Shown here: piece by piece, positions 3,941 to 56,225 of the stretch
How the letters are laid out: every line of letters starts with the position of its first letter
How positions within the stretch are numbered: position 1 is the first letter of the stretch
Origin: a virus
Reading direction: 5' to 3' (one strand)
Virus record (IMG/VR): IMGVR_UViG_3300042261_000762
Coordinates: 40,108-104,107 of that record
Length of the DNA: 64,000 bases
Made by a program: the position numbers and the translations under genes
The notes under the pieces: model-generated
The model's input: the letters and a program-made list of their open reading frames with translations, nothing else
What the model was told of the DNA's origin: nothing
Databases searched by the model: none

Positions 3941-4975
3941 ATGATTAAATTATTTGATAATTTCATTAATGAACAATACGAATTAGATCCTTACGGTGAA
4001 GAAAATTTGGATGATAATGTTAAAGTTAGAATTGCCAAATGTAAAAAAGATTTCAAAATAGGGCGTGATAAGGTAGTGCTGTTTCATAAAGGGGATGAAT
4101 ATGAAATAGTAGATGATCACGATTGGGACGGATTTATGATTCTCAAAACTCAAATACATGGAACTCCACATAATCACGCAATACCATTAAATAACATGTA
4201 TAAAGATTCTTTTTGGAAACATTTTATTATTAAAGAAAATATTAAATCTGATGTAGATCCTTATGGTGAAGAAAATTGGAATGATTTGGAGCCAGTTGAT
4301 GATGTAGTTCTAAGATTTCGAAATTATTATAAATGTGTTGAATGTGGCAATGAATGGGAAGATGAATGGGATTCTACTTGCGATGATGAATGTCCAAATT
4401 GTGGCACTATAATGACGCCATATGAAAGCGAAGATATAAATGAATCTTTTACAGAGGATGATCCTTATGGTGAAGAAATATGGAATGACATTAAACCGGA
4501 TCCAATAAATAGAGATACTGAAATAGAAATTGGTGATAAGATATATTATCATTACGATAGAAATAATATCGAACCAGCATTCATGGGTGAAGTTGAAAGA
4601 ATAATTAATCACCCTAAGTTTGGATTTGTTGATTATTTAATATCTGGAAAATATTCTCGAGAAATCAGTAAAATGAATTTGATTGGATGTGGGGCTAGAA
4701 TAATAAAAAGGACAAATGAGACAATAAATATTGATCCTTATAATGAAGAAAATTGGAAAGATGAAGAGGAATTTAATATTGGTGATGAATTAATTTGTAA
4801 AGAAGATATAATGACATCTACTGGCAAATATTGGCTGTTTCATCAAGGAAAAACGTATAGTATAATTAGAGTTACACATGATTGGATATTCGTTCTCACG
4901 AAATCTTTAGGACACGAAGTTAATATTCCTTTCACAAGAAAGGGCATTTGGAAAAGTTTCGATAAAAAAAATTAA
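3941..4975 (+). CDS. Modular protein with capsid-targeting-like N-terminus, four DPY[GN]EE motifs and a zinc ribbon
   Basis: MIKLFDNFINE start; each module preceded by xxE then DPYGEE; CVECG...CPNCG. Confidence 0.8.
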   Translation: MIKLFDNFINEQYELDPYGEENLDDNVKVRIAKCKKDFKIGRDKVVLFHKGDEYEIVDDHDWDGFMILKTQIHGTPHNHAIPLNNMYKDSFWKHFIIKENIKSDVDPYGEENWNDLEPVDDVVLRFRNYYKCVECGNEWEDEWDSTCDDECPNCGTIMTPYESEDINESFTEDDPYGEEIWNDIKPDPINRDTEIEIGDKIYYHYDRNNIEPAFMGEVERIINHPKFGFVDYLISGKYSREISKMNLIGCGARIIKRTNETINIDPYNEENWKDEEEFNIGDELICKEDIMTSTGKYWLFHQGKTYSIIRVTHDWIFVLTKSLGHEVNIPFTRKGIWKSFDKKN

Positions 4976-5002
4976 AAAGTTTTTTATTTCACAGATATTT
5001 CA

Positions 5003-5010
5003 TATCTTTG
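5003..5010 (+). promoter_or_regulatory. Bacteroidota-type -7 promoter element TAnnTTTG
   Basis: TATCTTTG; similar elements at 5484, 7564, 13373 and about 25651. Confidence 0.5.
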
Positions 5011-5014
5011 TAGT

Positions 5015-5248
5015 ATGAAAATTAAGTACTACGGATACGATTGTATTTTTCTTCCAACTGGACATATAGGGAAGATTATGAATGAATTGGATTCATTCAA
5101 ATCTTTATGCTGGGACCCGAATAAGAAAGAATCTTATTACAAAGAATATCCTCCTCAATGGGGTATTTATTGGTATGGTGGAGATCAAATACGACAAAAA
5201 GGAATGCCAAATTATTGGCAAGATAAAGATTTAATTCAGATATTATGA
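5015..5248 (+). CDS. Hypothetical protein
   Basis: 77-aa ORF after the promoter element. Confidence 0.65.
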   Translation: MKIKYYGYDCIFLPTGHIGKIMNELDSFKSLCWDPNKKESYYKEYPPQWGIYWYGGDQIRQKGMPNYWQDKDLIQIL

Positions 5249-5467: not shown

Positions 5468-5564
5468 TTAAGCAAACTTTTTGTAATTTTGTAGTACAAA
5501 TTAAGAAATGGAAAAAATTGACATTTTTTGGTTAATATATAACAAAGTATAAAAATTAAATATT

Positions 5565-5706: not shown

Positions 5707-5713
5707 GACATAT

Positions 5714-9255: not shown

Positions 9256-9498
9256 ATGAGAATAATAGCACAATCTTTACTGTTTATACTCAACAAGTGG
9301 AATTTATCAATGGATGAATTCAATCCTATTGGTAAATTTTTATGGTATATACCAAATTTTCTAAATAACGTTTTAACACAGATTTTTTATTTCTGTTTAT
9401 TCCCGTTTGTCTGTTTGTATTTTTATCTACACGAGAAGTCACAACTATACATTTTAATGTATAAGTTATTTTTAATACTTTTGAAAATTAATCAATAA
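9256..9498 (+). CDS. Putative membrane protein
   Basis: Hydrophobic 80-aa ORF. Confidence 0.5.
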   Translation: MRIIAQSLLFILNKWNLSMDEFNPIGKFLWYIPNFLNNVLTQIFYFCLFPFVCLYFYLHEKSQLYILMYKLFLILLKINQ

Positions 9499-10321
9499 CT
9501 CTAATTGGAGCCTGTTTAATGTGGTCTAATTCTGAGAACGGTGGTTTATAAACATGCCATCTTCCTTTTGGATCTAGTAATACTATTTCCTTCTTACGAT
9601 CTCCTGGTTCTTTCATTATAACATCAGATACAAGGAATCTATCCTTGAATTTATATCCTCTTCTCATTTCATTTCCAATCCCTTCAGGAGTCATTATTAT
9701 AGTTTTATTTAGAAGTTGATCTTTTACTAATTTTATTATTTGATTATCAGTCATTCTTCCGAAATCCTGTAGAGAAAACGAAACAGTATTATCTTCTCCT
9801 TGTTCTTCCCATTCTTCTTCACCATACGGATCTTCTTCATCGTGATTAGCTTCTTCTTTGCCATCCTCATTTTCTAAGACTCTTAAAAATCTTCTACATC
9901 TAGCCAATCCCTCTTGTTTTTTATGATTTCTAGCTAATTTATCTGGGTTCCTCATTATATTCTCTATAACTACTTTAATATCTTCCGCTAAATCCGCGTA
10001 GTTATTTTCGGCATACTCTTGAGCCATGTGATCAACTAGGGTTTTAAGATCTTCGTCAGACATTTTATCCATAGCTTTGTTTGTCAAATCATGCATATTA
10101 TAAAGAAGACCTAATTTTTTGGATCTTGCTATAAATATATCTAATTCTCTAAAGACTCCTCTCATCGGTTTCGACCAGAAAAATAATGCTTTTAATACTC
10201 CTAATAAAGCATGTGCTTTAGCAAAACTATATTCGAGTTTGACTCTTCTACCAAATCTTTTAACATCTTTCCAATTTAATTCTTCATTTACAAACTCATC
10301 GTATCCTTTAATATTGTTCAT
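9488..10321 (-). CDS. Hypothetical protein with capsid-targeting-like N-terminus and DPYGEE motif
   Basis: MNNIKGYDEFVNEE; DPYGEEEW. Confidence 0.8.
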   Translation of the reverse strand: MNNIKGYDEFVNEELNWKDVKRFGRRVKLEYSFAKAHALLGVLKALFFWSKPMRGVFRELDIFIARSKKLGLLYNMHDLTNKAMDKMSDEDLKTLVDHMAQEYAENNYADLAEDIKVVIENIMRNPDKLARNHKKQEGLARCRRFLRVLENEDGKEEANHDEEDPYGEEEWEEQGEDNTVSFSLQDFGRMTDNQIIKLVKDQLLNKTIIMTPEGIGNEMRRGYKFKDRFLVSDVIMKEPGDRKKEIVLLDPKGRWHVYKPPFSELDHIKQAPIRVID

Positions 10322-11297: not shown

Positions 11298-11360
11298 TTA
11301 ATTGTTCATATTTTATGATATATATAAAAAACTGAAAATCGTTTTTTAATATATATGTGC

Positions 11361-12371
11361 ATGATAAGAAAATTTGAGTTATTCGAGTCCAAAGAACCAT
11401 TTAATCCAAATATACATGAAGGAGATAGAATAATAATAACCAATGGAAAACATAAAAATCAAACTGGAGTGGTAATATTTGTGGAATCTCCAGAAGATTG
11501 TGGATTTATCGTAAACGATGTTGAAGTTAGAATGGATTATACTGAAAAGGAAATAGGGTTTAAATTTTCAGATATCGAAAAATTAGATCCAATCGTTAAT
11601 GTTACATCGGAAGACCCATACGGTGAAGAAGATTATAGAAACGATCCATGGGAAACATTTAGATATATAGAATACATAAGAGAAAACGAACTTAGGCTTG
11701 ATGGTAAGCATGGATTCTTTATGTTCTTAAAACTCATAGACGATATGAAGATGCATTTTATTAAGACAAATCATTTTCTTAACGTTGGTAAATATCAATA
11801 TTTCTTTACAACAGAAGCAATAAGAAGAAAAGATGAATTTATGGCATATTTCAAAGATTCTTTGTCTCTTAAAGTTACTTGTAGTACTGCTTTAAGAATA
11901 AAAGATGAAAGATTATCTTTTTATTTCGGTGTTAAAGGAAATAAATTGGAATATGGATTCCACGACGACATGAAAAGAGATATTTATAAGACTGGAATAT
12001 TTGATATAAATACAAGATATTTAAGAAGTTTAAAATCTTATAAATGTTTAGTTCTTATCGAGAATATATTAAAATATTCTAACATATCTAATTTGAATCT
12101 TCTACAAGAAATTAAATCGCATTTTAAAGGGTGGTATGAAGGAAAAGGTAATGTATTAATATTGAATGAAAACATGATTAGAAAAACTCTTAAAAGAGAA
12201 GATATACATGATGATGCTAAAGAATCTGTAGCTTTATTACAAAAGTATGAAAAATGGTGTGAGAAATTTAAGTGGTGTAATAAAGTATATTATTATATAG
12301 ATAATGAGGAAGAGAATGAAGTAGATTTTTATATTAAAATAAAACCTAAAAAGAATGTTGAAGAAGTTTGA
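11361..12371 (+). CDS. Hypothetical protein (KOW-like N-terminal module, DPYGEE motif)
   Basis: MIRKFELFES; GDRIIITNGKHKNQTGVV; DPYGEEDY. Confidence 0.8.
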   Translation: MIRKFELFESKEPFNPNIHEGDRIIITNGKHKNQTGVVIFVESPEDCGFIVNDVEVRMDYTEKEIGFKFSDIEKLDPIVNVTSEDPYGEEDYRNDPWETFRYIEYIRENELRLDGKHGFFMFLKLIDDMKMHFIKTNHFLNVGKYQYFFTTEAIRRKDEFMAYFKDSLSLKVTCSTALRIKDERLSFYFGVKGNKLEYGFHDDMKRDIYKTGIFDINTRYLRSLKSYKCLVLIENILKYSNISNLNLLQEIKSHFKGWYEGKGNVLILNENMIRKTLKREDIHDDAKESVALLQKYEKWCEKFKWCNKVYYYIDNEEENEVDFYIKIKPKKNVEEV

Positions 12372-12690
12372 ACAGTTTAATGATCCTTATGGTGAAGAAA
12401 ACGATGATGTAATGTTAGAGCCACCTGAAGATTATTCTGGAGAAAATAGAAATCTGGAAGAAATTCTATCTGTTCTTGATAAAAAAGGATTTATAGAGGG
12501 CGATGATTTATTCGATGAAGAGTATGATATTATTGATAATAATTTAGTTGATATAATATATAGAGGAGTAAATTTATCAGATAATTGTAATCTTTTTCAA
12601 CTCGGAGAACTTATTGTTAGTCTTGATAAAGGAGATGAATATGGCCAAGGTTATTATCTGGCCAAAATAGATAGAATGGAAGAAGAATGA
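12355..12690 (+). CDS. Acidic DPYGEE-motif protein
   Basis: MLKKFEQFNDPYGEE. Confidence 0.75.
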   Translation: MLKKFEQFNDPYGEENDDVMLEPPEDYSGENRNLEEILSVLDKKGFIEGDDLFDEEYDIIDNNLVDIIYRGVNLSDNCNLFQLGELIVSLDKGDEYGQGYYLAKIDRMEEE

Positions 12691-13007
12691 TAAAAAGATA
12701 TAAAATATTTGAACAAATTGACGATCCTTATGGTGAAGAAGTTGATGAATTCACAGACGGAAAAGACGAATTTGATGTAGAAGATCTTGAATTTTTAAAT
12801 GGAAACGCTGAAACAAAATTCACATTAAATTATAAATTGTTTAATGATTGCATTACGTTTGAAGTATTTTACGATGATATGGGATATAATTATTATGAAA
12901 TATATAATAAAAATGAACTCCCTGAGAATATAATAAATTTATTAGAAGAATACAATGATGAAATTAGAATAAAATTACAAGAAGATATAAGAAATGGGAG
13001 ATTTTAA
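12687..13007 (+). CDS. Acidic DPYGEE-motif protein
   Basis: MIKRYKIFEQIDDPYGEE. Confidence 0.75.
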   Translation: MIKRYKIFEQIDDPYGEEVDEFTDGKDEFDVEDLEFLNGNAETKFTLNYKLFNDCITFEVFYDDMGYNYYEIYNKNELPENIINLLEEYNDEIRIKLQEDIRNGRF

Positions 13008-17900: not shown

Positions 17901-18902
17901 GTGATAACTAAGTTTAAATTATTTGAAGCCAATAAGTACACAGACTATGATCCTGATGGTAACTTTAACGTCGGTGATAGAGTCATTGTTAATGGTCATT
18001 ATGTTAATATAACTTTCAAGGGGGAATCAGGAACAATAATTAATTTTTATGAAGCCGGAGATAATAGTAAAAAAAGGGAGATTTTAATTAGATTTGACAG
18101 TAGATTTAATACAGATTTAATGTCGGGTGATAACAATGAAGATCCAAGTGGGACTTCATATTATGTCACTAGTGATTTGGTAGAATTGGAAGATAAAACT
18201 CCTGGGAAAATTAAATGGTATAGTAAGGGTCTTTGGGAGAAATATAATGAAATAGATCCATATAATGAAGAAGACTGGGATGACAAGAATCAAATATTTG
18301 TAATGTATAAAGGTTTTATGGCGGGCGAAGGACAAAGCTATCATTTACATGTAGTTGTTAATAAACATTATGGTGGAAACACAAACGGTCAATATCTTTG
18401 GGATGTAGATAAAAGAGGAATGCCTGATGTTGTTAAATGCGTTTCAGTATATGATCCACGTAGACATAAATTTGCTAGTAGTGAAGAAATAGAGAAATAT
18501 TTAGATTTAGAAAAATTAGAGTCGGTATTTAATTATAGAAATGGTGAAGTTAGAGAAAGTGTTAAATGGTATAAAAATGGAAATTTTGAAAATGAGCCAG
18601 AATGTAAACATGGTAAACATGAATATGTATTAACTCAGAAAGCAACATTTGATAAAAACACATTAAAACCATATTATAAAAATGAAATAAAATGTAAAAG
18701 ATGTGGTAGTGTTAAAAAATATTGTAAGCACGCTTGGTCATATTATGATCTAGTTACACAAGATAGGAATGGAAATAATAAAGTAAAACATTTGTTAAGA
18801 TGTACCAAATGTGGAGAGTATGAAACAGATTTATCAAAAATGCCAAAAGAAAAGGGTGATAGTTTTTCGACAAAAATTAAAAAAATAATCAAAAAGAAAT
18901 AA
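17901..18902 (+). CDS. Modular hypothetical protein (DPYNEE, KWY motifs, C-terminal Cys/His zinc ribbons)
   Basis: MITKFKLFEA; IKWYSKG; VKWYKNG; CKRCG; CTKCG. Confidence 0.8.
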   Translation: MITKFKLFEANKYTDYDPDGNFNVGDRVIVNGHYVNITFKGESGTIINFYEAGDNSKKREILIRFDSRFNTDLMSGDNNEDPSGTSYYVTSDLVELEDKTPGKIKWYSKGLWEKYNEIDPYNEEDWDDKNQIFVMYKGFMAGEGQSYHLHVVVNKHYGGNTNGQYLWDVDKRGMPDVVKCVSVYDPRRHKFASSEEIEKYLDLEKLESVFNYRNGEVRESVKWYKNGNFENEPECKHGKHEYVLTQKATFDKNTLKPYYKNEIKCKRCGSVKKYCKHAWSYYDLVTQDRNGNNKVKHLLRCTKCGEYETDLSKMPKEKGDSFSTKIKKIIKKK

Positions 18903-19319
18903 TTGATAACGAAATTCAAAATATTTGAAAATAACACATTTAGTTTTAAGTTGGATGATATTCTATCACGAAATAGAATGCAAACAAATAGTGAAGCTGA
19001 TCCTTACGGTGAAGAAGATTGGAATAATATTAATGAGGATTCTATAAAAAAAGAATTGATGGGAATAGTTTTAAATAGACACGTCGAGTTTAGAACTTTA
19101 TCATCAGAAGGACCTTTATATAATAAAAAAGTTATCAAGGGTGTTGTTAAAGATGTTATTGTCAAATGGATACCCCATCATCTTGAATATTGGATACTTT
19201 TTTTAATTAATGGTAAAAATCATTATGTTTATCCTAATTTAGATATAAAAGTTAAAGAAAATTTAATGGAACACATAGATATAGATCCTTATGGAGAAGA
19301 AAAATGGGATGAAGAATGA
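18903..19319 (+). CDS. DPYGEE-motif protein (two copies)
   Basis: MITKFKIFEN; ends IDPYGEEKWDEE*. Confidence 0.75.
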   Translation: MITKFKIFENNTFSFKLDDILSRNRMQTNSEADPYGEEDWNNINEDSIKKELMGIVLNRHVEFRTLSSEGPLYNKKVIKGVVKDVIVKWIPHHLEYWILFLINGKNHYVYPNLDIKVKENLMEHIDIDPYGEEKWDEE

Positions 19320-22300
19320 TAAAGAAATTTAAAATATTTAAGATAAATGAAGGAATGTCATTAAATGACATAATATCCAAAGCTGAGAACAAAGGATACG
19401 GTGGAGATATTAGATATATCAAAAAAGATCTAGAGAATAATTTTCTTAATAAAAGAGTCAGAATATATAAAAAAGGCAAACCTTATGTAGAAATAGATGT
19501 GGGAGCAATAGTTCGCGAAGGATTCACTTTTTATTTTGAGGCGTTGGAAGTTTTAGATATGGGAAATCGCGGCATGTATTGGAATTCTTATTCAGAAGCT
19601 GAGAAAAATACAATGATTGGTTTAGTAAAAGGACAAGATACTATTTTTATAAGAATAGACAGCGACGATGATATAGATATTATTGGTGAAGCGGATATTA
19701 AAAAGATAACAAGAAAGAAAGAACAGAGAAAATTAAGAGAATTAAAAAAAGACGTAGATCCTTATGGTGAAGAAGATTGGGGAGAAGACACTAATAAAGT
19801 AATATCTAAATATGATATAAATAGCCCAGATGGACAAGAAAATTTATACAAAAAAGGCGAGGAATATGAAATCGAAACAAACGCAATACACGGTGATCTT
19901 ATTGGAGTAAAAACAGAATTGTCATTTGGACAAAAATATGTTCATTATTTTAGAAGAGAAGACTTCAATGATTATTTTGATAGAATAACAGAATCAATTG
20001 AAAATTTAGATCCTTATGGCGAAGAAAATTGGAATGATGATGAATCTCAGCTTTTTTTGGATTCAATTACTCGATACTTAGATATAAATGCAAAAATACA
20101 TAATATTAAAGATAAATGGTATATTTATTTTGAAAAAGATGATGAATTTTATAAAATATGCAACAATGACGCTGGAAAAATACTTTTATATAATCGCACA
20201 AATCATCATTCAATTGAATTAGTTGATAATGATATAGGTACAAAATTCGATTGGCTAAATATTAGATTAGCTATGCAAAAATTAGAACATAAAAAATCCT
20301 ATGCAAAATTTCAAAATGAAAAAAGAGATTATAAAGACGTTGATCCTTATGGTGAAGAAATTTGGGCTGAAGAAGATGAATATAATTGGATTTATATTAA
20401 TGATCCATATGCTGAAGATGCTAATCCAACATTGAATTTATTAGAGCAACAAATAGGTAAATTTATTGTATTTAAGATTGATTGGACAAATGAATATAAA
20501 GAAGGAGTTTTACAATCTGTTATGATTAATGTGCTTGGAGAAATAGAATTGGAGGTTGATAATCATTTTTATCTATTAGACGAAAGAGAAAGAATAGGAG
20601 TAGCAAAGGAAAATATAATAACGGAACAGTATGATGAACAAGATCCATATGGTGAGGAAATTTGGAATGAAGATCCAAAATTTCAAATAGGAGATAGAGT
20701 AGAATTTGCAAAAGATCCACCCAATAGATCATATTATTATCTGATTGAAGAATTTTTCCCGGATGATCGATCGTATAGATTGAGCATACACGATAAAAAT
20801 ACCAATGAAAGATTTCCTGGTCATGTTTTGATAGATGAATTTAATTTAAAATTAGAAAATATAAAGGAAGAATTCAAGTGGAGAAATAAAAACTATATTT
20901 ATTATACTCAAACATTTATGGATAATAATAAAGTCAATAGAATAATGGAAAAAATTAGTCCTGAATGGATTACTAATAATCCTGTGGCTTTTGAAACATA
21001 CAATAATAAATTATACTTAACTGAGGGACATCATAGATTTGAGGCTTGTTTAAGAAAGAATGATAAAAATTTATTAGAAACTTTATTTAAAACTGCTTTA
21101 TATTATCCAGTGAAAAGAGAACCTAGAAAATTTAAGAAAAAATATATTCCTGAAGATATTAAAATGATAAAAGAAAATAAAGAAATAACAGACGAAAAGA
21201 TAAAAGCAACCATTGATTTTATTTCTAAAACAATAAAAGGCACTGAATGGGAAGGTAAAGTTTATATGGCTGGCGGCGGCGTTAGAGACGAACTCATGGG
21301 CAGAACTTCAAAAGATATAGATTTACTTATTAATGTACCAGACGGCGGAATAAACTTTGCTATATGGTTTACAAAGAAATTGAAAATATACAGAGAAGAT
21401 AAAAATCCTGTTATCTATCCAAGATTTGGAACCGCTAAATTTACTCTAAGAAAACAAAAACATAACGGATTAGATTTATCAGGAATTGATATTGAATGTG
21501 TTATGCCAAGAAAAGAAACTTATACTGAAGGAAGTAGAGATCCAGAGGTAAGTCAAGGCACACTTAAAGATGATGTCGATAGGAGAGATTTTACAGTTAA
21601 TAGTTTGTTGAAAGATTTATCTACTGGGGAAATTCTAGACTTAACAGGAATGGGTAAAGAAGATATTAAAAGGGGAATAGTGAGAACTTCACTTAATCCT
21701 GATGTTATTTTTACTGAAGATCCTTTAAGAATGTTAAGAGCTATAAGATTCACAGTTAAATGTGATTGGGATTTACCTTTATTTATGATTAGAGCCTTAA
21801 AGAAGAACGCAAAACAACTTCAAATAATATCTTCAGAGAGAGTTCAAGATGAATTGAACAAAATGTTATTAACAGGTCATCCTGATAAGGCTATAAGATT
21901 ACTTCAGATAACGGGGTTGAGTAAATATATTTTCCCTGAACTTGATAAACTTATAAAAATGAAACAAAACAAGCATCATAAATATGATGCTATGCGTCAT
22001 TCTTTAGAAGTATTAAAGAATACTCCTCCAGATCTTGTAACAAGATTGTCTGCTTTATTACACGATATAGGTAAAAGTAAAACAAGAGAAATAATTGATA
22101 ATGAAGTTCATTTTTATGAGCATGAAAGGATTGGCGCATTTATGGTAAGGGATATATTAAAAAGGTTGAGATATCCAAAAGAAATAATAAATGCTGTTGT
22201 TATTGCAGTTGAAAATCACATGAAAACAAAACAGTCTGGAGATAAGGGAGATTTAAGTGATAGATCTTTAAGAAAATTGAAACAAGATTTGGGTCCACAT

Positions 22301-31748: not shown

Positions 31749-31749
31749 A

Positions 31750-32004: not shown

Positions 32005-32007
32005 AAT

Positions 32008-32202: not shown

Positions 32203-32205
32203 AAA

Positions 32206-32592
32206 TTAATCCTCCCAATCTTCTTCGCCATAAGGATCTAAATCTGTAAATTTTTGACCCTTTGGTACATGAGTACTATTATTGCTTATTCCTCCTGTTC
32301 CACTTGATCCACTTACTCCATGAGGACTACAAGAATAATAAGGTCTCCCTATTCCGGCAACTCCTGATGTTCCGCTAGTGCCTACTGCACCACTCATTCC
32401 CATTTTAGCCTTACTAAATCCTGGATCTGCCACTATATCGTAAGATAATATTTTGTGGGATTTAATATATCTATCTACTACTTCTCCTACTCCTCTACTA
32501 CAAACAACAAAATTAGCAGGCGCTGTTCTGCCAGCCTCTGATATTATATTAGAAGCTTCAAGTATCTTGCCTACTAATTTTTTGTTGTTCAT
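32206..32592 (-). CDS. Major-capsid fragment plus SGTSG tract with DPYGEE tag
   Basis: KILEASNIISEAGRTAPANFVVCSRGV resembles gp23 IARQTGRGEGNFIIASRNV. Confidence 0.7.
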   Translation of the reverse strand: MNNKKLVGKILEASNIISEAGRTAPANFVVCSRGVGEVVDRYIKSHKILSYDIVADPGFSKAKMGMSGAVGTSGTSGVAGIGRPYYSCSPHGVSGSSGTGGISNNSTHVPKGQKFTDLDPYGEEDWED

Positions 32593-40429: not shown

Positions 40430-40939
40430 ATGACGGATAAAGAACAAAAATTATTAAATTCATTATATCAATTTTATTCTACTGAAGAAAAAAAACCTGT
40501 TGCTGGAAATTTTGAATTCTCTGAAGGAGATAATGTTATTTATAACAACATGGGAGAAAGACATGCCGGAGAAGTTGGTGTTTATAAAGGTAGAAGACAA
40601 GAAGATGGTAAAATTAAAATAAAATACGCTAATGTTATTTTTTGGGCTAATCCAAAATATGTGGCTCCAGCCAATACAGTAAAAGATTTATCTAGATTAT
40701 ATAGAATATTAGATCAAATGGTACAAGATGGAGATCTATCAAGATCAGTTGTGGATAAATTTAAAAGAGAAGTAGAACAAAAAACTCAAAGGAAAAAATT
40801 AGATCCATATAACGAAGAATCTTGGGATGACGATGAACCTGAGCAAATTATAAAACCACCTAGACCAAATCCTCCTCAACAAAGAAGACAAACCGCTGAC
40901 CCATGCGCCAGAGGCGGATATACTAGAGGAGGTTGTTAA
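40430..40939 (+). CDS. Hypothetical protein with DPYNEE motif
   Basis: LDPYNEESW; ends DPCARGGYTRGGC. Confidence 0.75.
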   Translation: MTDKEQKLLNSLYQFYSTEEKKPVAGNFEFSEGDNVIYNNMGERHAGEVGVYKGRRQEDGKIKIKYANVIFWANPKYVAPANTVKDLSRLYRILDQMVQDGDLSRSVVDKFKREVEQKTQRKKLDPYNEESWDDDEPEQIIKPPRPNPPQQRRQTADPCARGGYTRGGC

Positions 40940-42602: not shown

Positions 42603-43334
42603 TTAAAACCAACCTCCGAAAAAAGAAGTCTGTTGTTTTGGTGGTTTAAGACAAGTAGATTTTGTCCACATATTAAAATAACCAGTTATTAATCCAAGTG
42701 ATGTGTTTGGTACTCTAATTAAATAATCACATTTATCAGTATTTGGAGAATCACAGAGGTTGTGATGTTTGTAACTTACATGATCTATTTTTATTACAGT
42801 TACTTGTTTACCGTGATGTAAATTCCACATATAAGGAAAACAATTAATATCTGGAACATATGTATATACTCCATTTACCTTAATTTTTTCTACTGATTTT
42901 TGATTTTGTTTTCCTGGTCCAGTTCCGTTTTTTATTGTTAAAGTCCCGTCTTTATCATCAATACTCCAATTTCCTGGTTTATGCCAAGGGCCATTTGGAT
43001 CTTTAGATTTCTGCTCTGGTTTAGCGACCGGTTTAGGCTCTGTCTTTTCTTTTTTCTTAAAACATTTGGTCCATGCTATAGTGATATTTCTTTGACATTC
43101 ATTGGCTTTTTTATATCTTTTGGCTTTTGGATACAAAGATTCTATTTCTTTCATCAAAGGCAACGCCATATCAACAAGAAATCTAAGTCTATCTTCCATA
43201 GCTTTATTTGAATTTGAATCTGAATCTGTATTAATAAAAGCTGGCATGCCATCCACGTCTTCAGCATTCTTATCTATTGATTCTGATAAAAACTTTTTAT
43301 AATTTTTATTAATTTTCCCAGTCTTCTTCTCCAT
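42603..43334 (-). CDS. Hypothetical protein
   Basis: 243-aa ORF; NYKKFLSE near the N-terminus. Confidence 0.7.
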   Translation of the reverse strand: MEKKTGKINKNYKKFLSESIDKNAEDVDGMPAFINTDSDSNSNKAMEDRLRFLVDMALPLMKEIESLYPKAKRYKKANECQRNITIAWTKCFKKKEKTEPKPVAKPEQKSKDPNGPWHKPGNWSIDDKDGTLTIKNGTGPGKQNQKSVEKIKVNGVYTYVPDINCFPYMWNLHHGKQVTVIKIDHVSYKHHNLCDSPNTDKCDYLIRVPNTSLGLITGYFNMWTKSTCLKPPKQQTSFFGGWF

Positions 43335-43644
43335 ATGGATCTTCTTTTGTTATTTTTCTTTTTCCCTGAGGATAATAAGGCACATCTTTGCCACTCATCA
43401 TCATACCCATTCTTATAGCACTTACATAAGAAAATATATTAGCTAATCCCATCTGACTAGCTGTTGTTTGATAGATTTCCGTCCCGTCTTTTATTTTTAA
43501 TACGAACATGTTGTTTTCTGTTACCATTGATAAATGTGGATATATTTTCCAAACCGCGGCCATTATTCCTTTTATGTCGTCAATAGTAACATCATCGCCA
43601 TGTTTCATTTGTTCTTTTAATATATCTTGAAATCTTTTAACCAT
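43309..43644 (-). CDS. DPYGEE-tagged protein
   Basis: MVKRFQDILKE; ends EDPYGEEDWEN*. Confidence 0.75.
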   Translation of the reverse strand: MVKRFQDILKEQMKHGDDVTIDDIKGIMAAVWKIYPHLSMVTENNMFVLKIKDGTEIYQTTASQMGLANIFSYVSAIRMGMMMSGKDVPYYPQGKRKITKEDPYGEEDWEN

Positions 43645-44231: not shown

Positions 44232-44582
44232 TTATCTTTCTAATTTTCCTACAAAAATTAAAGATCTGTCAACTTGAGCTTGCATGTAAGGATCTTCTTC
44301 TCCCCTGTTTCCATTATTAAAATTTATATTTATAAATTCATCTATGTTTTCACCTATTACTTTAGTCCTGGTATCTACAATATTCGGTCCTATTACGTTT
44401 TGATTAATATTCCAAATTATATAAACATATCCTCTAATAAAATGGTTTTCATAATTTCTTGTGCATAAATATATGTTATTCATACTTGTTATTTCCTGTT
44501 CTTCTACAGGATTCCATATTTCCTCACCATATGGATCTATTTTATTAAATTTCTCAAATGTCTTTATTATGCTTTTTTCCAT
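44232..44582 (-). CDS. DPYGEE-motif protein
   Basis: IKTFEKFNKIDPYGEEIW. Confidence 0.75.
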   Translation of the reverse strand: MEKSIIKTFEKFNKIDPYGEEIWNPVEEQEITSMNNIYLCTRNYENHFIRGYVYIIWNINQNVIGPNIVDTRTKVIGENIDEFININFNNGNRGEEDPYMQAQVDRSLIFVGKLER

Positions 44583-46829: not shown

Positions 46830-47186
46830 TTACCAATCTTCCTCTCCGTAAGGATCTACACTTCTCATTCTATCTTTTAATTGTTGTTTCTTGATCATCC
46901 ACTTATCAAAATCTTTTTTTTTAAGAAAATTGTTATGCCATTGAGTTCCTATTAGTATTCCGGATTCTATATCTATTATATCAAGAAGACCGTCTGATCT
47001 AGAATCAGTAACTCTATATGCATTACCTGTAGTTAGATAACGATTTGTGAATGTGCTATAAATAATATCTCCAACATCAAATGGTTGTTTTGGACCTTTT
47101 CCTTTAGGATGTTTCATTTCAGGAGCCCTGTGTGGAAGATTTGTCTCATATATGTATCTTTCAAATGATCTTATATTATTAAGCAT
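46830..47186 (-). CDS. DPYGEE-tagged protein
   Basis: Ends exactly VDPYGEEDW*. Confidence 0.75.
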   Translation of the reverse strand: MLNNIRSFERYIYETNLPHRAPEMKHPKGKGPKQPFDVGDIIYSTFTNRYLTTGNAYRVTDSRSDGLLDIIDIESGILIGTQWHNNFLKKKDFDKWMIKKQQLKDRMRSVDPYGEEDW

Positions 47187-50627: not shown

Positions 50628-51734
50628 TCACATATCTTCTCTACAATCAGGACAAACTTGGTCTAACATTAAAGCATATGGATAACGTTCTCCACATATT
50701 CTACAATGAGTATAATCAAGTTCTCTATCTCTATCATCTAAATAATCCAATATCCCTCTATCAAATTCTTCCTTTTCCTTATCTTCGTTCCAGTTTTCTT
50801 CACCATAAGGATCTAAATCATTTTGATTTTCGAATATCTTAAATTTATTATCATTCAAATATTTTCTTTTATTATAGTCGTGAATTTTAAAAACTTCTTC
50901 CCAACTTATTATTCCTTCTTCTGGTCTTGATATCTCATCCGTTTTAATTTTTTTGAAAATATCAATCTCTTTAATAACAAAATCTTCCATTATTTTATCT
51001 CTCAATGTATCTTTTTCAAGACTATTAAAATATCTAGTTTTTTTCTTTCTATTATTTTCTATATTTTTATTTTTTTTAATCTTTTTAATTCTAGCTCTTC
51101 TGCTACCAGCAAAATATGGATCTTCTATTACGTCACTAGCAACACCAATAACATCTGGACGTCTGAATGTTGCAGAATCAGGACCTTTATTGAAAGAAGG
51201 ACCGGCATTTTGTTGATCGCTATGACCCATAGAACCATATCCTGTTACATTTCTATAATCAGAATACTCGTTTAGTGGACTTTGACACATTATAAAATCT
51301 TCTTTTGAAATTTTAAATATTTTCAATATATCTGAAAATTTTAAGTCTTGAAAATCCCCTTCTCCTTGCCAATCGCATACATATACTTTTATTCCAATTT
51401 TATCATCCATTACTAATTTCTTTTCTTCTTCGTTTAATGGAATAAAATCCCAGTCTGGAAGAGGGAAAAATTCAAATGAATATCCTTTTTCAAAACATTC
51501 ACCAACAGCCATTAAATAATCACATGCTTTTGTTCCTTGAAATCTAAATTGAATTATACCTCCTTCTTTATTAACCGGATTGGCGTCGTTGTGATAAGAA
51601 GAAAAATAATAAAACCCACCGTCTTTTAATGCTACTTTTTGAATATCAAATCCGTTTAATTCTTCCCATATTTCTTCACCATATGGGTCTATTTTATTTC
51701 TATCTTGTTCGAATAATTTGAATTTTTTTATCAT
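50628..51734 (-). CDS. Modular DPYGEE-motif protein (two copies) with terminal zinc ribbon
   Basis: MIKKFKLFEQ; internal KFKIFENQNDLDPYGEE; CRICG...CPDC. Confidence 0.8.
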   Translation of the reverse strand: MIKKFKLFEQDRNKIDPYGEEIWEELNGFDIQKVALKDGGFYYFSSYHNDANPVNKEGGIIQFRFQGTKACDYLMAVGECFEKGYSFEFFPLPDWDFIPLNEEEKKLVMDDKIGIKVYVCDWQGEGDFQDLKFSDILKIFKISKEDFIMCQSPLNEYSDYRNVTGYGSMGHSDQQNAGPSFNKGPDSATFRRPDVIGVASDVIEDPYFAGSRRARIKKIKKNKNIENNRKKKTRYFNSLEKDTLRDKIMEDFVIKEIDIFKKIKTDEISRPEEGIISWEEVFKIHDYNKRKYLNDNKFKIFENQNDLDPYGEENWNEDKEKEEFDRGILDYLDDRDRELDYTHCRICGERYPYALMLDQVCPDCREDM

Positions 51735-51748
51735 AAAATTAATTTTTT

Positions 51749-52414
51749 TTAAAATCTGTTATCTTCTCTAAAATATATTTCTTCTCTATGCATTAGCCAA
51801 TCGAAGTGTTCACTACACAAATAAGTTGTTAAATTATGTCTCATTTCAAATTCTCTATATTGTTCTTCTTCAAAATGTGGGTTCCACGGATTTTCTTCTC
51901 CTACTTTATGACTTGCCATATTTTGACAACCAACTATCATACATTTAACTCCTTTAACAGAACCTGGTAATTTATGTTCATCCCCCCAGTTTTCTTCCCC
52001 GTAAGGATCTATTTTATTTTTACCTCTTTTATATCTCTTATTCTCATCAATCTTATTTTCAATTCTTTTCTTCATTTTATTTATGAGTTCGTCTAATTGA
52101 AGAATAAAATTTTCTTTGGATGTTATGTTTGTTGTTTCTGTTTTTGTTTCATTCCCTCTTTCGTGTGATAATTGTAATGTATTTTGCCCGTGTAATTCAT
52201 AGAAATCGAAATTAAATCCCTTAAATTTAAATTCTATGGTTCTACCTATCTTTGGATAATCTGGATCAGCATCCATGTATGTAAAATTCTTAACTCCTCT
52301 TATATTTTTTATAAAATCGATGTAATCGTCAAATGGAAATTCATTCCAATCTTCCTCACCGTAAGGATCGATATTAGAGTCGATTTGTTCAAATATTTTA
52401 AATTTTCTTATCAC
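51749..52414 (-). CDS. DPYGEE-motif protein (two copies)
   Basis: MIRKFKIFEQIDSNIDPYGEEDW. Confidence 0.8.
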   Translation of the reverse strand: MIRKFKIFEQIDSNIDPYGEEDWNEFPFDDYIDFIKNIRGVKNFTYMDADPDYPKIGRTIEFKFKGFNFDFYELHGQNTLQLSHERGNETKTETTNITSKENFILQLDELINKMKKRIENKIDENKRYKRGKNKIDPYGEENWGDEHKLPGSVKGVKCMIVGCQNMASHKVGEENPWNPHFEEEQYREFEMRHNLTTYLCSEHFDWLMHREEIYFREDNRF

Positions 52415-53238
52415 TTAATTCTTTTTAATTTTTCTATTATTGGATCTATTCTTCTTTTAAGACCATATAAAATACTAGTCCCTTCAAAAGCGTCATTCCA
52501 AACATGGGCTATATATTTAATTCTAGCAATAGTTGCTTCGTCAATTTGACCATCACTCTTTTTCAAGAAAGATAAAATTTTCTTTTCTATTGTATCAGGT
52601 TTTGTATCTTTTAATAATTCAATAACTTCAGACATATTTTGTAATGTATCTAATAGATCAATAAATCCACTAACATCAGTGTGTACTGATTCTTGCGCCC
52701 ATTCACCTTCTACATAATTATATTTAAATTTTTTATTTTTATCTTTTTCTCCCCATTCTTCTTCACCATAAGGATCATGTGCTTGAATTTTTTTTCTTTC
52801 TTCTTCTTGTTCATCTTTATATTTTCTTGTAGCGACTGGATCTAATTCCAACATGTGTTCTGGAACTCCTTTTAATGTTCTTATAGTATCAGTTCTAGTT
52901 ATAGAATCCTTTTTACATCGTCCTTCTTCATCATAAATTAGATGCATAATTCCACTATAAACATCTAAAAATTCTATAGCATATGTATTTGTTTTAGATT
53001 TTGCAAATGGAATTTCAATATAACGATCTCTATCTATTCTATCGCCGATTCCTTGAAAAAAACTTCTACCTTTTTTTCTAGTTCCATATGAAATTTTACA
53101 TAATTTACCATCAAGTTCTTTATCGTTAGGATTATGATATATACAAATATCACCGCCATGAAATTTATGTTTATGAAAATGGTGTTCCAAACCCATTATT
53201 TTTACTTCTTCGTTATATTTCTGAAATTTCTTTATCAT
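52411..53238 (-). CDS. DPYGEE-motif protein
   Basis: Likely start MIKKFQKYNEE; HDPYGEEEW. Confidence 0.8.
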   Translation of the reverse strand: MIKKFQKYNEEVKIMGLEHHFHKHKFHGGDICIYHNPNDKELDGKLCKISYGTRKKGRSFFQGIGDRIDRDRYIEIPFAKSKTNTYAIEFLDVYSGIMHLIYDEEGRCKKDSITRTDTIRTLKGVPEHMLELDPVATRKYKDEQEEERKKIQAHDPYGEEEWGEKDKNKKFKYNYVEGEWAQESVHTDVSGFIDLLDTLQNMSEVIELLKDTKPDTIEKKILSFLKKSDGQIDEATIARIKYIAHVWNDAFEGTSILYGLKRRIDPIIEKLKRIK

Positions 53239-53376
53239 AAATTTTCTGACCAATCTTCTTCACCATAAGGATCAAAGATTTTATTTTTATTTTTTTATTT
53301 CTTCTAATTTTGTTCTTTGTTCATCGATGGCATTTTTCTTTTTTCTAAATATATTAAATTCTTCAAATGTTCTCAT
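53235..53376 (-). pseudogene. Frameshifted mini-gene: capsid-targeting-like start plus DPYGEE tag
   Basis: MRTFEEFN...LEEIKK*; removing one A from the A7 run (53290-53296) gives ...IKNKNKIFDPYGEEDWSENL*. Confidence 0.65.
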
Positions 53377-55901
53377 TATGTCCAATTTTTATTTACATAG
53401 TTATCAGTATAAATATTTCTATCTGCATTATCAGCCAATAATACTTTTTCAGCGTTAGCAATATAGTATTGATTTAATACATTCCTTATTTCATTATCTG
53501 GAATTATATCTGTTAATATTCTTAAATTAGTATATTTAATATTAGTTCCTTTTATTTCAATGTCAGATTCATGTGTGAAAGATTGATTTAACGTATCTGT
53601 GTACTTAACATCTTTAACAGTTATATAATCTGTTGATAAATTTCTAGACTCTTCTTGATTATCTACGGGTTTATATCCGGCACTTATTAAATAAGTATAT
53701 CCAGTTGAGTCCGCCCAATTTATAGATTCTACTTGATAAGAAGTAGGATTAAAGAACACTATATTATAATCATTTTCTCTTGTGTGCAAATTCAAAGATA
53801 ACGTTTGTTGTCTTTGATCTATGTTTATTACAAGAGAATACCAAATATTGGTCAATAGATTTACATTCTGTAATTTATAATATTGTTCATTTAATTGGAA
53901 ATTAATATCTTTTTTGAAATACCATAATCTATATCCTGTTTTAGTAGTTTCATCGTAATTATCTAATAACCAGAAATTAGTATTTTGATCAACGTTATAT
54001 AATTCTATAGCATTTTTATTCGGTTTTTCTGGTGTCCATCCATTATTGAAATTAAACCAACATATTATTGATCTGTTTGTTGATTCCGTAAAAGTATTAT
54101 CGGTCTTTTTATATACTATAGCAGTTTTTCCTATAGCCTTACTAAAATCATAATGACTCTTCGATACATCAAAATTACCATTTGTTATTAATTCTTGAAC
54201 TCTAATTACTTTATTATTAACAACGTAACGCATAGGATCAAAAGTAAATGGTTTGAATTGTTCGATATTAGCGATCATTTCTTCTTCATTTTTCTTTTCT
54301 GGGCCGAAGAGTTCGCTCATTGTAGTATTTTTTGTAAGAGTATCGAGTAAAGCTTTTGATTCTTCGTGTAAGTTTCTGATGTTTGCTTTTTGTTCGTATT
54401 TTTCTAATATTACTTTATAATAATATCCAGCGTTCATTACGTCTCTGAATACTTGTGCGTGTTTTATGTAATATAATCTATTTATAGGGCACATGAATAA
54501 TATGTCATTCTCTGAAGGACGTGCTGTTATTCCAAATTTACGTTTAAACTCATCTTTCAAAATATGAATTTCGAATGTATCAAAGAGATCAAGACTAAAT
54601 TGATTAAATTTAATCATGTTATCTGGGAATTTATTATCAGGCACAAGAACCTTTATTTTTTTCATATCAACTATATTGAATAATTGATATTCGTGTAATA
54701 TCATATCTTCACCATTTGAATCTGGATCTGTTAAATGATAATCAACTTCCCAAGCAAATATGTTATTAACATCATTTGCTAACTTATTAGCAAATGCCAT
54801 AATTTGTGTTATATCATATGGTTTCCATAATGTATCTGTGTTAGCTTGATTCTCTGCTGTCATTCCAGCCATAACTCCACCAGCTGGCACTGTTCCATTA
54901 GAACTTAAAGGGCTCGTGGAATAACAACTTAATCCTTGTGTCCAAAAATTCATATTTAGATCATATGGTGTCATCGCTCCTGTCGGAGTACCATTACCTG
55001 GTGCTATTCCATAAGATACTCCAGATGTAGTCGGAATATTAAATCCACAAGAATCTGTCGCTCCCGTTGATTGATTTATATAAGGTACTAAACAGTCTTG
55101 TCTTATTCCATATCTATTTGTTTTCAGATAATTAGCTGAAACGTTTTGAAAATTTCCAGTTAAAATAATATCATAAACGTTATTTGGTTGATCTGATTCT
55201 ATATATAATTTCACTTTATATTCAATTCTAGCAAACCTTAAATTATTAAATCTAAAAGTTGATATATTAGATTTTGTAAGTGGTTCCCATTTTGAATAAG
55301 TTCTTCCATTGTCTTGTGTAACTCTATACATAATATCAAGATTACCTGGATCATCCGCTATAATTTGAAAGTCACTCAAAGAGAATATTTTATAAATATC
55401 TTTTGGTATTAAGATAACTGCGTTGTCCTCTTCTGTGCCTCCAGACAGAGTAAAGGGTCCATCTGTATAATTGAATTCATAATCTCCATAAATAACCAAT
55501 GCTTGTGAGTATTGATCATCCCCAAAATAGATATTAGTTCTTGGGTGTTGTGCGTCATTCGCTCCATCGTCTACTCTCATTATAAAGAACTCAATATCAA
55601 AAGGAACATTCGGAAGACAAGTTATTCCGGTAATTGATTCTATTGGCATCATGTCACTCCAACAATCTTGACATCTAGCTCCTTCATTGTCATATTTATT
55701 TTGATATTTGAAAAATATCTTGACGTATTGCCATGTTTTTTCTCCTCTTATGATGTCAGTATATGCTCTTATATTTTTAACTCCTGTAATGGGAGCAGTT
55801 GGTCTAAGATACAACGTATTGTTTGTTGGGGACAAAATTTGATAACCAATGAAATTCATTGTAAAAGTGCCGTCATACATTTTATTTAAGAGATAATTCA
55901 T
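53376..55901 (-). CDS. Virion structural protein, possibly with a neck/head-closure (gp14-like) domain
   Basis: 841 aa; DMILHEY...FEIHI...RPSENDILF...RLYYI...YYKVILEKY; adjacent to tail-like genes. Confidence 0.55.
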   Translation of the reverse strand: MNYLLNKMYDGTFTMNFIGYQILSPTNNTLYLRPTAPITGVKNIRAYTDIIRGEKTWQYVKIFFKYQNKYDNEGARCQDCWSDMMPIESITGITCLPNVPFDIEFFIMRVDDGANDAQHPRTNIYFGDDQYSQALVIYGDYEFNYTDGPFTLSGGTEEDNAVILIPKDIYKIFSLSDFQIIADDPGNLDIMYRVTQDNGRTYSKWEPLTKSNISTFRFNNLRFARIEYKVKLYIESDQPNNVYDIILTGNFQNVSANYLKTNRYGIRQDCLVPYINQSTGATDSCGFNIPTTSGVSYGIAPGNGTPTGAMTPYDLNMNFWTQGLSCYSTSPLSSNGTVPAGGVMAGMTAENQANTDTLWKPYDITQIMAFANKLANDVNNIFAWEVDYHLTDPDSNGEDMILHEYQLFNIVDMKKIKVLVPDNKFPDNMIKFNQFSLDLFDTFEIHILKDEFKRKFGITARPSENDILFMCPINRLYYIKHAQVFRDVMNAGYYYKVILEKYEQKANIRNLHEESKALLDTLTKNTTMSELFGPEKKNEEEMIANIEQFKPFTFDPMRYVVNNKVIRVQELITNGNFDVSKSHYDFSKAIGKTAIVYKKTDNTFTESTNRSIICWFNFNNGWTPEKPNKNAIELYNVDQNTNFWLLDNYDETTKTGYRLWYFKKDINFQLNEQYYKLQNVNLLTNIWYSLVINIDQRQQTLSLNLHTRENDYNIVFFNPTSYQVESINWADSTGYTYLISAGYKPVDNQEESRNLSTDYITVKDVKYTDTLNQSFTHESDIEIKGTNIKYTNLRILTDIIPDNEIRNVLNQYYIANAEKVLLADNADRNIYTDNYVNKNWT

Positions 55902-55973
55902 AATTTAAAAAAAGGCATTTTTAATTTAATATATATATAAAAACAAGAAAACCAAAAAAATTAGTAAAGGATT

Positions 55974-56225
55974 ATGAATAATCTAAGGACTTTTGAAGAA
56001 TTTAAATGGCCTTTCAATTTTGGAAAGAAAAAGACAAATATTATAGATAATAATGATCCTTATAGTGAAGAAGTAGATGATCATGATAACGAAAAATCTT
56101 GGTATTATGAAGATCTACCGTCAAATGATTATAATAAAATACATTGTCCTTCATGCGGGAGTAGTGATACCTATGAAGAAAGATATGATTGGCATGTTTG
56201 CAATAACTGCAATAGTTGGTTTTAA
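55974..56225 (+). CDS. Zinc-ribbon protein with DPYSEE motif
   Basis: MNNLRTFEEF; CPSCGS...CNNC. Confidence 0.75.
   Translation: MNNLRTFEEFKWPFNFGKKKTNIIDNNDPYSEEVDDHDNEKSWYYEDLPSNDYNKIHCPSCGSSDTYEERYDWHVCNNCNSWF

Follow-up and report, generated by a model that had tools for sequence, protein, structure and literature searches.

Why should dozens of proteins of one phage, with no detectable similarity to each other, end in or contain the same eight-residue acidic peptide? We examined this in a window of 64,000 nucleotides (positions 40,108 to 104,107 of IMG/VR record IMGVR_UViG_3300042261_000762). The contig, 104,107 bp in all, is about a third of a huge lake phage related to the 735-kb phage LR756501. 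About one in four genes in this piece carries the peptide on a flexible end or linker. It is apparently an undescribed address or docking label, which we tentatively link to phage head assembly, although no reader was identified.

Occurrence and position of the peptide

A six-frame scan found 34 strict DP[YF][GNS]EExW copies in the window and 40 in the whole contig. One DPYGEEDY and four W-less DPYGEE variants, the latter located just after an N-terminal leader, bring the window total to 39 copies in 25 ORFs plus one broken mini-ORF. The original prediction, of about 39 copies in about 26 ORFs on both strands, was therefore correct as an observation. Every copy lies in the sense frame of an ORF. 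No out-of-frame or intergenic copies, which had been named beforehand as evidence for a DNA element, were found, and no antisense copies either. Twenty Markov-2 shuffles of the contig gave 0-1 hits of a looser pattern. In LR756501 the DNA pattern occurs 103 times, against 0 for the reversed control.

The three positional classes that had been proposed (C-terminal, following an N-terminal leader, and between modules) are real. Thirteen of the 39 copies lie within 4 residues of the C-terminus, and in 184 carriers from relatives there is a sharp mode at exactly 2 residues after W (40 carriers). A second class sits at residues 8-16 after a conserved leader, and the remaining copies are internal. 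As had also been predicted, ordinary enzymes (TK, GMP reductase, glutamine synthetase and DnaJ) and the tail-fibre genes lack the tag. One correction is needed. Third codon positions had been described as varying freely; they vary, with synonymous variants at every degenerate position, but CCT, TAC and GGT are over-used relative to genome codon usage (in LR756501, p = 4e-13 for Pro and 1e-15 for Tyr).

Tagged ORFs and neighboring features. Coordinates are those of the window; tag positions include the variant copies.
Position	Strand	Length (aa)	Tag position (nt)	Description
3941..4975	+	344	3986 (W-less DPYGEENL), 4256, 4460, 4733	Leader MIKLFDNF plus W-less copy; full tags between modules
9488..10321	-	277	9832	Internal tag
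11355..12371	+	338	11613 (DPYGEEDY)	Residues 104-338 match an untagged 242-aa protein of LR756501, so the tagged N-terminal module is an add-on
12355..13007	+	111 and 106	12382, 12723 (W-less DPYGEE)	Two small ORFs, each with the leader (MLKKFEQF, MIKRYKIFEQ) followed by the W-less copy
17901..18902	+	333	18255	Tag in an insertion absent from the orthologue in LR756501
18903..19319	+	138	18999, 19284	Second tag C-terminal (W+3)
19316..22630	+	1104	19757, 20009, 20342, 20642	CCA-adding / poly(A) polymerase-HD enzyme; a ~640-aa N-terminal extension carries the four tags; the same enzyme is 481 aa and untagged in relatives G002 and L094
22627..23529	+	300	22939, 23098, 23497	Last tag C-terminal (W+2)
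30863..32592	-	178, 133, 84, 64 and 128	32238, 32040, 31782, 31406, 31117, 30895	Tandem array of five mini-proteins, each built from fragment(s) homologous to the gp23-like major capsid protein; one also contains a piece of the protease; each fragment is followed by a constant linker (KEIKRVYSDL or PKGQKFTDL) and a C-terminal tag plus 2 residues
32948..34084	-			M16 (HxxEH) peptidase in the same strand block as the array, separated from it by a 120-aa HAD-like ORF (32589-32951); context only, not shown to read the tag
36423..37409	-			Untagged paralogue of a portal fragment (46% identity to portal residues 82-268 of LR756501), in the same strand block
40430..40939	+	169	40802	Tag conserved at the same place in the LR756501 orthologue
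43309..43644	-	111	43341	C-terminal tag
44232..44582	-	116	44537	Leader plus tag at residue 16
46830..47186	-	118	46856	Tag at the very C-terminus; W is the last residue
49463..50561	-	158, 136 and 72	49621, 49570, 50268, 50378	Three carrier ORFs
50628..53253	-	368, 221 and 280	51689, 52369, 50813, 52009, 52776	Three carrier ORFs; the first two have leader plus tag at residue 16 (51689, 52369); the 368-aa ORF is a fusion of modules that are three separate genes in LR756501
53250..53273	-			Intact tag in a 19-codon frame just downstream of a 29-codon leader mini-ORF (MRTFEEFNIF...); the two frames are separated by a frame change in an A-run, hence a broken or slippage-dependent leader-tag mini-gene
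55974..56225	+	83	56055 (W-less DPYSEEVD)	ORF with W-less variant

Conservation, distribution and carriers

To determine whether the peptide behaves as a short linear motif, we compared orthologue pairs. The tag, with its eight fixed or near-fixed residues, is an island of conservation, with 0.85 identity against 0.23-0.36 in the flanks. Carriers showed no mutual BLAST similarity once the tag was masked. Moreover, tags are gained and lost between orthologues, as seen for the ORF at 17901-18902 and for the CCA-adding enzyme, and modules are fused. In the AlphaFold model of one carrier from a relative, a protease paralogue, the domain has a pLDDT of about 90 while the linker and tag are below 50, indicating a flexible context in that protein.

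The tag is confined to one sub-clade. It occurs in 103, 46, 48 and 40 copies in four genomes whose capsid protein is 77% identical or more, but is absent from a complete 640-kb relative and from 11 other related contigs. Among 50,697 phage records only LR756501 and LR756503 carry it. In 185,579 cellular genomes (596 Gb) it is absent beyond chance: the 72 single hits are about what we estimate from the degeneracy of the pattern, and about 20 of them are enolases.

Several results link the tag to the phage head. This contig itself lacks the head module, but the lineage has a T4-type portal, an S77 protease-scaffold fusion and a gp23-like capsid protein. In LR756501, PF07068 scored 82.9 bits, above its cut-off. 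PF03420 scored 24.1 bits, just below its 27-bit cut-off, but PHROGs assigned the same ORF as a head maturation protease (E = 4.9e-27) and also identified the portal and the major head protein. A protease paralogue carries the tag at its C-terminus in 13 of 18 family members. A new observation is that the five consecutive tagged mini-proteins of the window match successive parts of the capsid protein, with BLAST E-values from 5e-12 to 1.1 (four of the five at or below 2e-3). One of them copies the propeptide up to the predicted maturation site. In LR756501, 5 of 12 head-protein fragments are tagged, against 81 of 1039 other ORFs, a five-fold enrichment (Fisher p = 0.0016). However, the real portal, protease-scaffold and capsid proteins carry no tag. 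Head genes are also present in tag-free relatives, and untagged head-protein fragments exist in the tag-free relative, so the fragments and the tag are separable.

A separate N-terminal leader (MIKKFxxFE, in fuller form M-I-K-K-[FY]-x-x-[FY]-E) marks about 10% of ORFs and often precedes the tag. It is enriched 4.6-fold over shuffled N-termini, and its aromatic residues are 3 apart, as at residues 4 and 7 of the T4 capsid targeting sequence (CTS; PMC9026906).

Possible roles of the tag

The original prediction interpreted the peptide as a short linear docking motif that binds one phage or host hub. This interpretation is partly supported: the evidence fits a docking motif under selection at the peptide level, but no binding partner was identified, and differential gene content gave no specific candidate. 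Of the hubs that had been named, MoxR and the vWA-like protein are missing from the tag-rich relative G002 and are unlikely to be the reader. The M16 peptidase, as well as DnaJ, also occurs in the tag-free relative G006, so neither is specific to tagged phages. The M16 peptidase lies in the same strand block as the tagged array here and in LR756501, but this adjacency holds only in close relatives and is lost in G002. Conserved co-location, as expected for RiPP-like precursors with an M16 leader peptidase, was thus not observed. Among the roles that had been listed (packaging or ejection, a protease or AAA adaptor, localization to a replication compartment, or a modification site), the tagged capsid, portal and protease fragments, the T4-type head module and the CTS-like leader favor the packaging or head option, without proving it.

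In its extended form, [STN]-[DE]-[ILV]-D-P-[YF]-[GN]-E-E-x-W-[EDN]-[DE], the motif is a portable peptide tag specific to one sub-clade of Mahaphage-like huge phages, so it is most probably read by a phage-encoded partner. Our preferred hypothesis, to which we give a probability of about 0.42, is that it serves as a docking and/or processing peptide for T4-type prohead assembly. In this view, the tag would dock its carrier to the scaffold-protease core or to the inner face of the capsid shell. Its core, a hydrophobic residue-x-Glu followed by Glu, would then offer a cleavage site to the gp21-family head protease, and carriers would be loaded into the head and released there, as the T4 CTS does for internal proteins. 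The core [YFL]-G-E-E fits the L/I-x-E and S/A-x-E rules of gp21-family proteases (PMC9026906), and the third tag residue is Y, F, L or W across lineages. What our analysis establishes is selection on the peptide, its flexible context, its portability, its restriction to a clade and its enrichment on head-protein fragments; the reader and its binding, the packaging of carriers, their location and the cleavage are inferred. Several points weigh against this model. AlphaFold did not dock the tag onto the protease-like domain in cis, and an acidic tag has no obvious basic partner in the acidic scaffold repeats. A CCA-adding enzyme, a methyltransferase and a TPM phosphatase are not obvious head cargo, and 10-26% of ORFs would be a very large cargo list. 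Finally, x-x-Glu cleavage rules carry little information, and an invariant 8-mer is far more specific than known gp21 sites.

The strongest alternative, although we consider it unlikely, is a hub that is not part of the capsid: a phage protease, chaperone or AAA+ machine, or the scaffold of a replication or translation compartment, with carriers acting as adaptors or clients. LRR modules and capsid, portal or protease fragments would then be baits for host proteins, for example immune sensors of phage structural proteins. Indeed, 22 of the 100 largest carriers in relatives are LRR proteins, that is, binding modules, although the LRR expansion is confined to one lineage. The tagged capsid fragments include two copies of the region that, going by T4 numbering, would equal the Gol peptide sensed by Lit (PMC8829019), and phage proteins that block sensors of structural proteins exist, such as DSAD1 against DSR2 (PMC11087589). 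Multi-tag proteins would give avidity, and enzymes such as the CCA-adding enzyme fit a cytoplasmic hub better than a capsid. However, neither a hub nor compartment genes were found, and the distribution of MoxR, vWA, M16 and DnaJ described above argues against these candidates.

A purely proteolytic signal, cut by the head protease or the M16 peptidase to separate modules and trim ends, appears improbable. Tags do separate modules of about 70-130 aa in long ORFs, free-standing modules end exactly 2 residues after W as processed ends would, the same modules are separate genes in one genome and fused in another, and the core fits Glu-specific cleavage rules. Yet one third of copies lie 0-4 residues from the natural C-terminus, where cleavage achieves nothing, eight invariant residues exceed what known gp21 or M16 sites need, and W-less variants occur only in the N-terminal class. 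A modification site, for example on Tyr, or a stabilizing cap is even less likely. The invariant Tyr/Phe lies in an acidic context, and C-terminal acidic ends tend to protect proteins from tail-specific proteases, but Phe, Leu and Trp replace Tyr, which rules out a Tyr-specific chemistry. Internal and N-terminal copies do not fit a cap, and no dedicated modifying enzyme co-occurs with the tag. A DNA-level element, such as a recombination or regulatory site or a small mobile cassette, is largely refuted by the strict coding context and by conservation of the amino-acid consensus where the DNA differs, although codon choice at the tag is more uniform than genome usage and a near-identical 24-nt stretch could promote module shuffling.

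A broader possibility, which is not excluded but which we consider unlikely, is that this clade runs a proteome-wide protein-sorting system. The tag, often combined with the CTS-like leader, would send 10-26% of the encoded proteins to one phage-built destination, either the giant prohead or another hub. Carriers would include enzymes, LRR binders and deliberately kept fragments of the phage's own capsid, portal and protease, which may act as decoys or regulators aimed at host sensors of structural proteins or at head assembly itself. If the tag is an address label, a single peptide of 8-13 residues would define the cargo or client list of the largest known phages. About 90 proteins in the 735-kb genome would turn from ORFans into a functional class that could be read straight from metagenomes, and the tag would be a compact handle for loading foreign proteins into very large capsids. 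The tagged capsid, portal and protease fragments are a separate puzzle, to our knowledge without described precedent, and could bear on how phages manage bacterial immune systems that sense conserved structural proteins. The sharp boundary between tag-rich genomes and a tag-free complete relative provides a natural experiment for finding the reader.

Comparison with known peptide signals

Among the closest systems is the CTS of the T4 internal proteins IPI-III and Alt, a short portable peptide shared by otherwise unrelated, fast-evolving proteins of a phage with a gp20/gp21/gp23-type head. The CTS includes a Glu-specific protease site, and T4 also uses C-terminal propeptides, on gp21 and Alt (PMC3012670, PMC9026906). 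The CTS is N-terminal, about 10 residues long, with targeting aromatic residues at positions 4 and 7. This spacing is found in the separate leader, but not in the tag, which has a different, acidic sequence of 8-13 residues, is nearly invariant, and occurs at C-termini (mostly there or internally), at N-termini and inside proteins. Packaging of tag carriers in this uncultured lineage remains inferred.

Encapsulin cargo-loading peptides are also short conserved peptides on flexible linkers, usually C-terminal and sometimes N-terminal, that dock varied cargo to the inner face of an HK97-fold shell. Their consensus is different, being hydrophobic and Gly-rich. Encapsulin cargo genes sit next to the shell gene, whereas carriers here are scattered in arrays across the genome and are not next to the capsid gene; any binding of the tag to the capsid protein is hypothetical. 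Hub-binding motifs on viral adaptor families, such as the PRANC/F-box tail of poxvirus ankyrin proteins, similarly join a repeat or binding module (LRR here) to a short terminal motif shared by many paralogues. In our case no hub was identified, and carriers also include enzymes and capsid fragments. Finally, the tag core [YFLW]-G-E-E contains both types of cleavage motif of gp21-family prohead proteases (L/I-x-E in T4, S/A-x-E in phiKZ), but these known sites are 3 residues long and degenerate, while the tag is an invariant 8-mer with a required Trp.

Distribution and portability of the DPYGEExW tag

The window is bases 40108-104107 of a 104,107-bp IMG/VR virus contig. The contig has a GC content of 30%, and CheckV estimates that it represents about 32% of a genome. 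It encodes EF-G, class I aminoacyl-tRNA synthetases and GluRS, an RNA ligase, radical-SAM proteins, PPK2, TK, GMP reductase, a glutamine synthetase, DnaJ, a MoxR-like ATPase, a DUF2201/vWA-like protein, an M16 peptidase, a CCA-adding enzyme and tail-fibre proteins. Its nearest deposited relative is the 735,411-bp uncultured phage LR756501/LR756503. Al-Shayeb et al. 2020 place their five genomes above 634 kb in the Mahaphage clade, with predicted Bacteroidetes hosts (PMC7162821). LR756501 has a T4-type head module, composed of a portal, an S77-like protease fused to a scaffold-like repeat region and a gp23-like major capsid protein.

A six-frame scan detected 34 strict DP[YF][GNS]EExW copies in the window and 40 in the 104,107-bp contig. 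Adding one DPYGEEDY and four W-less DPYGEE copies gives 39 copies, in 25 ORFs plus one broken mini-ORF, so that the observation behind the original prediction, which had counted about 39 copies in about 26 ORFs, is confirmed. Every copy lies in the sense frame of an ORF, while Markov shuffles give 0-1. The motif is however longer than first written, and extends to the 13-mer [STN]-[DE]-[ILV]-DP[YF][GN]EExW-[EDN]-[DE] (for example SDLDPYGEEDWED). One third of the copies lie within 4 residues of the C-terminus, and in 184 carriers from related contigs there is a sharp mode at exactly two residues after W. A second class follows a conserved N-terminal leader, and the remaining copies lie between modules of about 70-130 residues. 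Third codon positions had been said to vary freely. Synonymous codons do vary, but not freely, since CCT, TAC and GGT are over-used relative to genome usage, which fits either accuracy selection at invariant sites or spread of the tag by DNA copying.

Several comparisons indicate that the tag is a portable peptide motif. With the tag masked, no two carriers of the contig are similar by BLAST at E below 1e-3. In orthologue pairs with three relatives, the tag is 85% identical, whereas the flanking 40 residues on each side are 23-36% identical. The CCA-adding enzyme is 481 aa and untagged in two relatives, but here and in LR756501 it has an N-terminal extension with four tags. An AlphaFold model of a tagged protease paralogue, built on an 18-sequence alignment, gives a confident domain and pLDDT below 50 for the linker and tag. 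Pfam and PHROGs searches of the window carriers named only the CCA-adding enzyme and gave a weak Gp23 hit; all other carriers are ORFans. Carriers have a slightly more acidic isoelectric point, which is partly due to the tag itself. A promoter-like TAATATATA / [AT]ATATATA motif is enriched 25-35 nt upstream of about 23% of start codons in this contig and in LR756501 and the related genomes G002, G012 and G006, against about 5% of random 60-nt windows. It lies upstream of the portal and protease genes of LR756501, but it is equally common for carriers and other genes and is therefore uninformative about the tag.

Features of the window and contig considered in this part of the analysis (window positions unless stated; strand where given)
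Position	Strand	Feature
432-3700		A DUF2201 metallopeptidase/vWA-like protein and a MoxR-like AAA+ ATPase, with two small ORFs between them. The first is called an HNH endonuclease by PHROGs, which looks like a mis-annotation
3941, 12355, 12687, 44582, 51734, 52414, 53232		Examples of the 18 ORF N-termini of the contig with the leader
16919-17836 and contig 1-40 kb		LAGLIDADG-type homing endonuclease next to dnaJ; upstream of the window, EF-G, a class I aminoacyl-tRNA synthetase, an RNA ligase, a radical-SAM/methyltransferase fusion and a PfkB kinase
17901-18902		Carrier ORF; its tag lies in an insertion that the LR756501 orthologue lacks
30863-32592		Five consecutive C-terminally tagged mini-proteins, each built from a fragment of the gp23-like capsid protein
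30863-32592 and 36423-37409; LR756501 loci L131-L167		Small ORFs that are fragments of the phage's own portal, protease-scaffold and major capsid protein
50628-51734		368-aa ORF fusing modules that are three genes in LR756501
53200-53480	minus	29-codon leader mini-ORF (MRTFEEFNIF...) and an intact tag in different frames, separated by an A-rich run; the next ORF probably starts at the ATG giving MIKKFQKYNEE rather than at the TTG at 53253

The split leader and tag at 53200-53480 could represent a broken gene, an assembly error in a homopolymer, or slippage.

The distribution of the tag was then examined. The DNA pattern hits more than 113 stretches of IMG/VR contigs, but among 50,697 deposited phage genomes only LR756501 and LR756503 carry the tag. 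Host mimicry was assayed by scanning 185,579 cellular genomes (596 Gb), which gave 72 single hits, about the number we estimate from the pattern's degeneracy, and this possibility was rejected. About 20 of these hits are enolases with SIEDPYGEEDW. The enolases of Lactobacillaceae, a Saccharibacteria MAG and a WWE3 MAG (cellular loci L169, L182-L184, L188 and others) contain (S/T)(I/V)EDPYGEE(D/E/A)W, identical to the tag plus its hydrophobic -1 position. This is very probably coincidence, since the stretch lies inside the enolase sequence rather than at a terminus. A few other hits are short contigs binned into bacterial MAGs (3.3-kb contigs in Bacteroidetes/Bacteroidales lake MAGs, cellular loci L170, L226 and L234, and locus L194), which carry a typical C-terminal tag and homologues of LR756501 proteins. 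They are probably phage fragments mis-binned with, or co-abundant with, Bacteroidetes.

Among relatives found through the capsid protein, the tag is confined to genomes whose capsid protein is 77% identical or more to that of LR756501. The third tag residue varies by lineage: Y in most genomes, L or F in G012, and a few W variants in G013, another related genome. A complete 640-kb relative, with a capsid protein 63% identical, has no copy even with a generalised pattern, and eleven other related contigs also have none. The reader is therefore most probably phage-encoded, or co-opted recently.

Tag copies in the tagged genomes
Genome	Copies	Size / ORFs
LR756501	103	735 kb
G002	46	243 kb
G012	48	189 ORFs
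this contig	40	104 kb

Tagged fragments of head proteins and the N-terminal leader

Within the array of five tagged mini-proteins, the 64-aa protein copies the N-terminal propeptide of the capsid protein up to the predicted maturation site. The 178-aa protein holds two copies of capsid residues ~106-157, the 128-aa protein holds residues ~459-494 plus 18 residues of the protease, and the 133- and 84-aa proteins hold the C-terminal segment. Each fragment is followed by a constant 10-residue linker and the tag. BLAST E-values against the LR756501 capsid protein run from 5e-12 to 1.1, and four of the five are at or below 2e-3. The array lies in one strand block with an M16 peptidase and a portal-fragment paralogue.

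Such fragments are not restricted to this contig, which has 6-7 of them. In LR756501, the portal, protease-scaffold and capsid protein are the three proteins with the most fragment paralogues (12 small ORFs), and five of those 12 are tagged, against 81 of 1039 other ORFs (Fisher p = 0.0016). Several fragments mimic the capsid propeptide (KA.KKW.PILDAL...EKR.WM..YAE.H). The tag-free 640-kb relative also has five such fragments, all untagged, so the fragments are older than the tag. They could be decoys, assembly regulators or remnants. Moreover, a small protease paralogue, which appears to have lost the Ser of the main protease's VSSRAAG stretch, carries the tag in 13 of 18 family members.

The N-terminal leader M-I-K-K-[FY]-x-x-[FY]-E forms a second signature. 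It starts 95 of 1013 ORFs in LR756501 and 18 of 170 here, about 10% of ORFs, whereas shuffled N-termini give about 21 and 4, a 4.6-fold enrichment. It is also present at about 5% in the tag-free relative. The leader co-occurs with N-terminal tags more often than expected by chance (odds ratio about 12), but mostly stands alone. All W-less tag variants but one sit directly after it.

A full-text literature search for DPYGEE found only unrelated eukaryotic hits, and we found no description of the motif in the literature. The present analysis adds the clade boundary with a tag-free complete relative, the lineage-specific variants of the third tag residue, the codon bias at the tag, the independent leader, the arguments against MoxR/vWA as the reader and the tagged capsid-protein fragments.

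A docking-plus-processing peptide as a tentative reading

Several features of the tag fit a docking-plus-processing peptide for the T4-type prohead. Its core is [YFLW]-G-E-E, it sits on flexible ends, and it occurs on a protease paralogue, on scaffold-repeat and capsid fragments, and after a CTS-like leader. We give this reading a probability of about 0.4. The analyses establish that selection acts on the peptide, that it is portable and lies in a flexible context (from one predicted structure), that it is restricted to one clade and that it is enriched on head-protein fragments; the identity of the reader, binding to it, loading into the head and cleavage are all inferred. The true head proteins are untagged, and AlphaFold did not predict docking of the tag in cis on the protease-like domain. 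Carriers such as the CCA-adding enzyme would also be odd cargo, and 10-26% of ORFs is a very long cargo list. The view put forward in the original prediction, a short linear docking motif that binds one hub, is only partly supported.

The main rival, which remains possible but is less favored, is docking to a hub that is not the capsid, with LRR modules (22 of the 100 largest carriers in relatives) and structural-protein fragments acting as baits. MoxR and the vWA-like protein, which had been suggested, are absent from the tag-rich G002, although the completeness of G002 is only estimated by CheckV. The M16 peptidase, also suggested, lies next to tagged genes only in close relatives, this adjacency being lost in G002, and both M16 and DnaJ occur in the tag-free relative G006. 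LRR proteins were rejected as the reader because their expansion is confined to the G002 lineage, with none in the related genomes G000, G012 or G013. A comparison of gene content (present in W01, G002 and G012, absent from G006) gave 35 families, including a tandem basic paralogue family upstream of the portal, which is a widespread viral family of unknown function in the ESM Atlas. A pure processing signal, a modification site and a DNA element are less likely.

Phage T4 loads diverse, fast-evolving internal proteins into the scaffolding core through a short capsid targeting sequence (CTS), which the gp21 protease then cuts off after L/I-x-E, and T4 gp21 and Alt also lose C-terminal propeptides (PMC3012670, PMC9026906). 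The aromatic spacing of the leader described here matches residues 4 and 7 of the T4 CTS, which carry the targeting function (PMC9026906).
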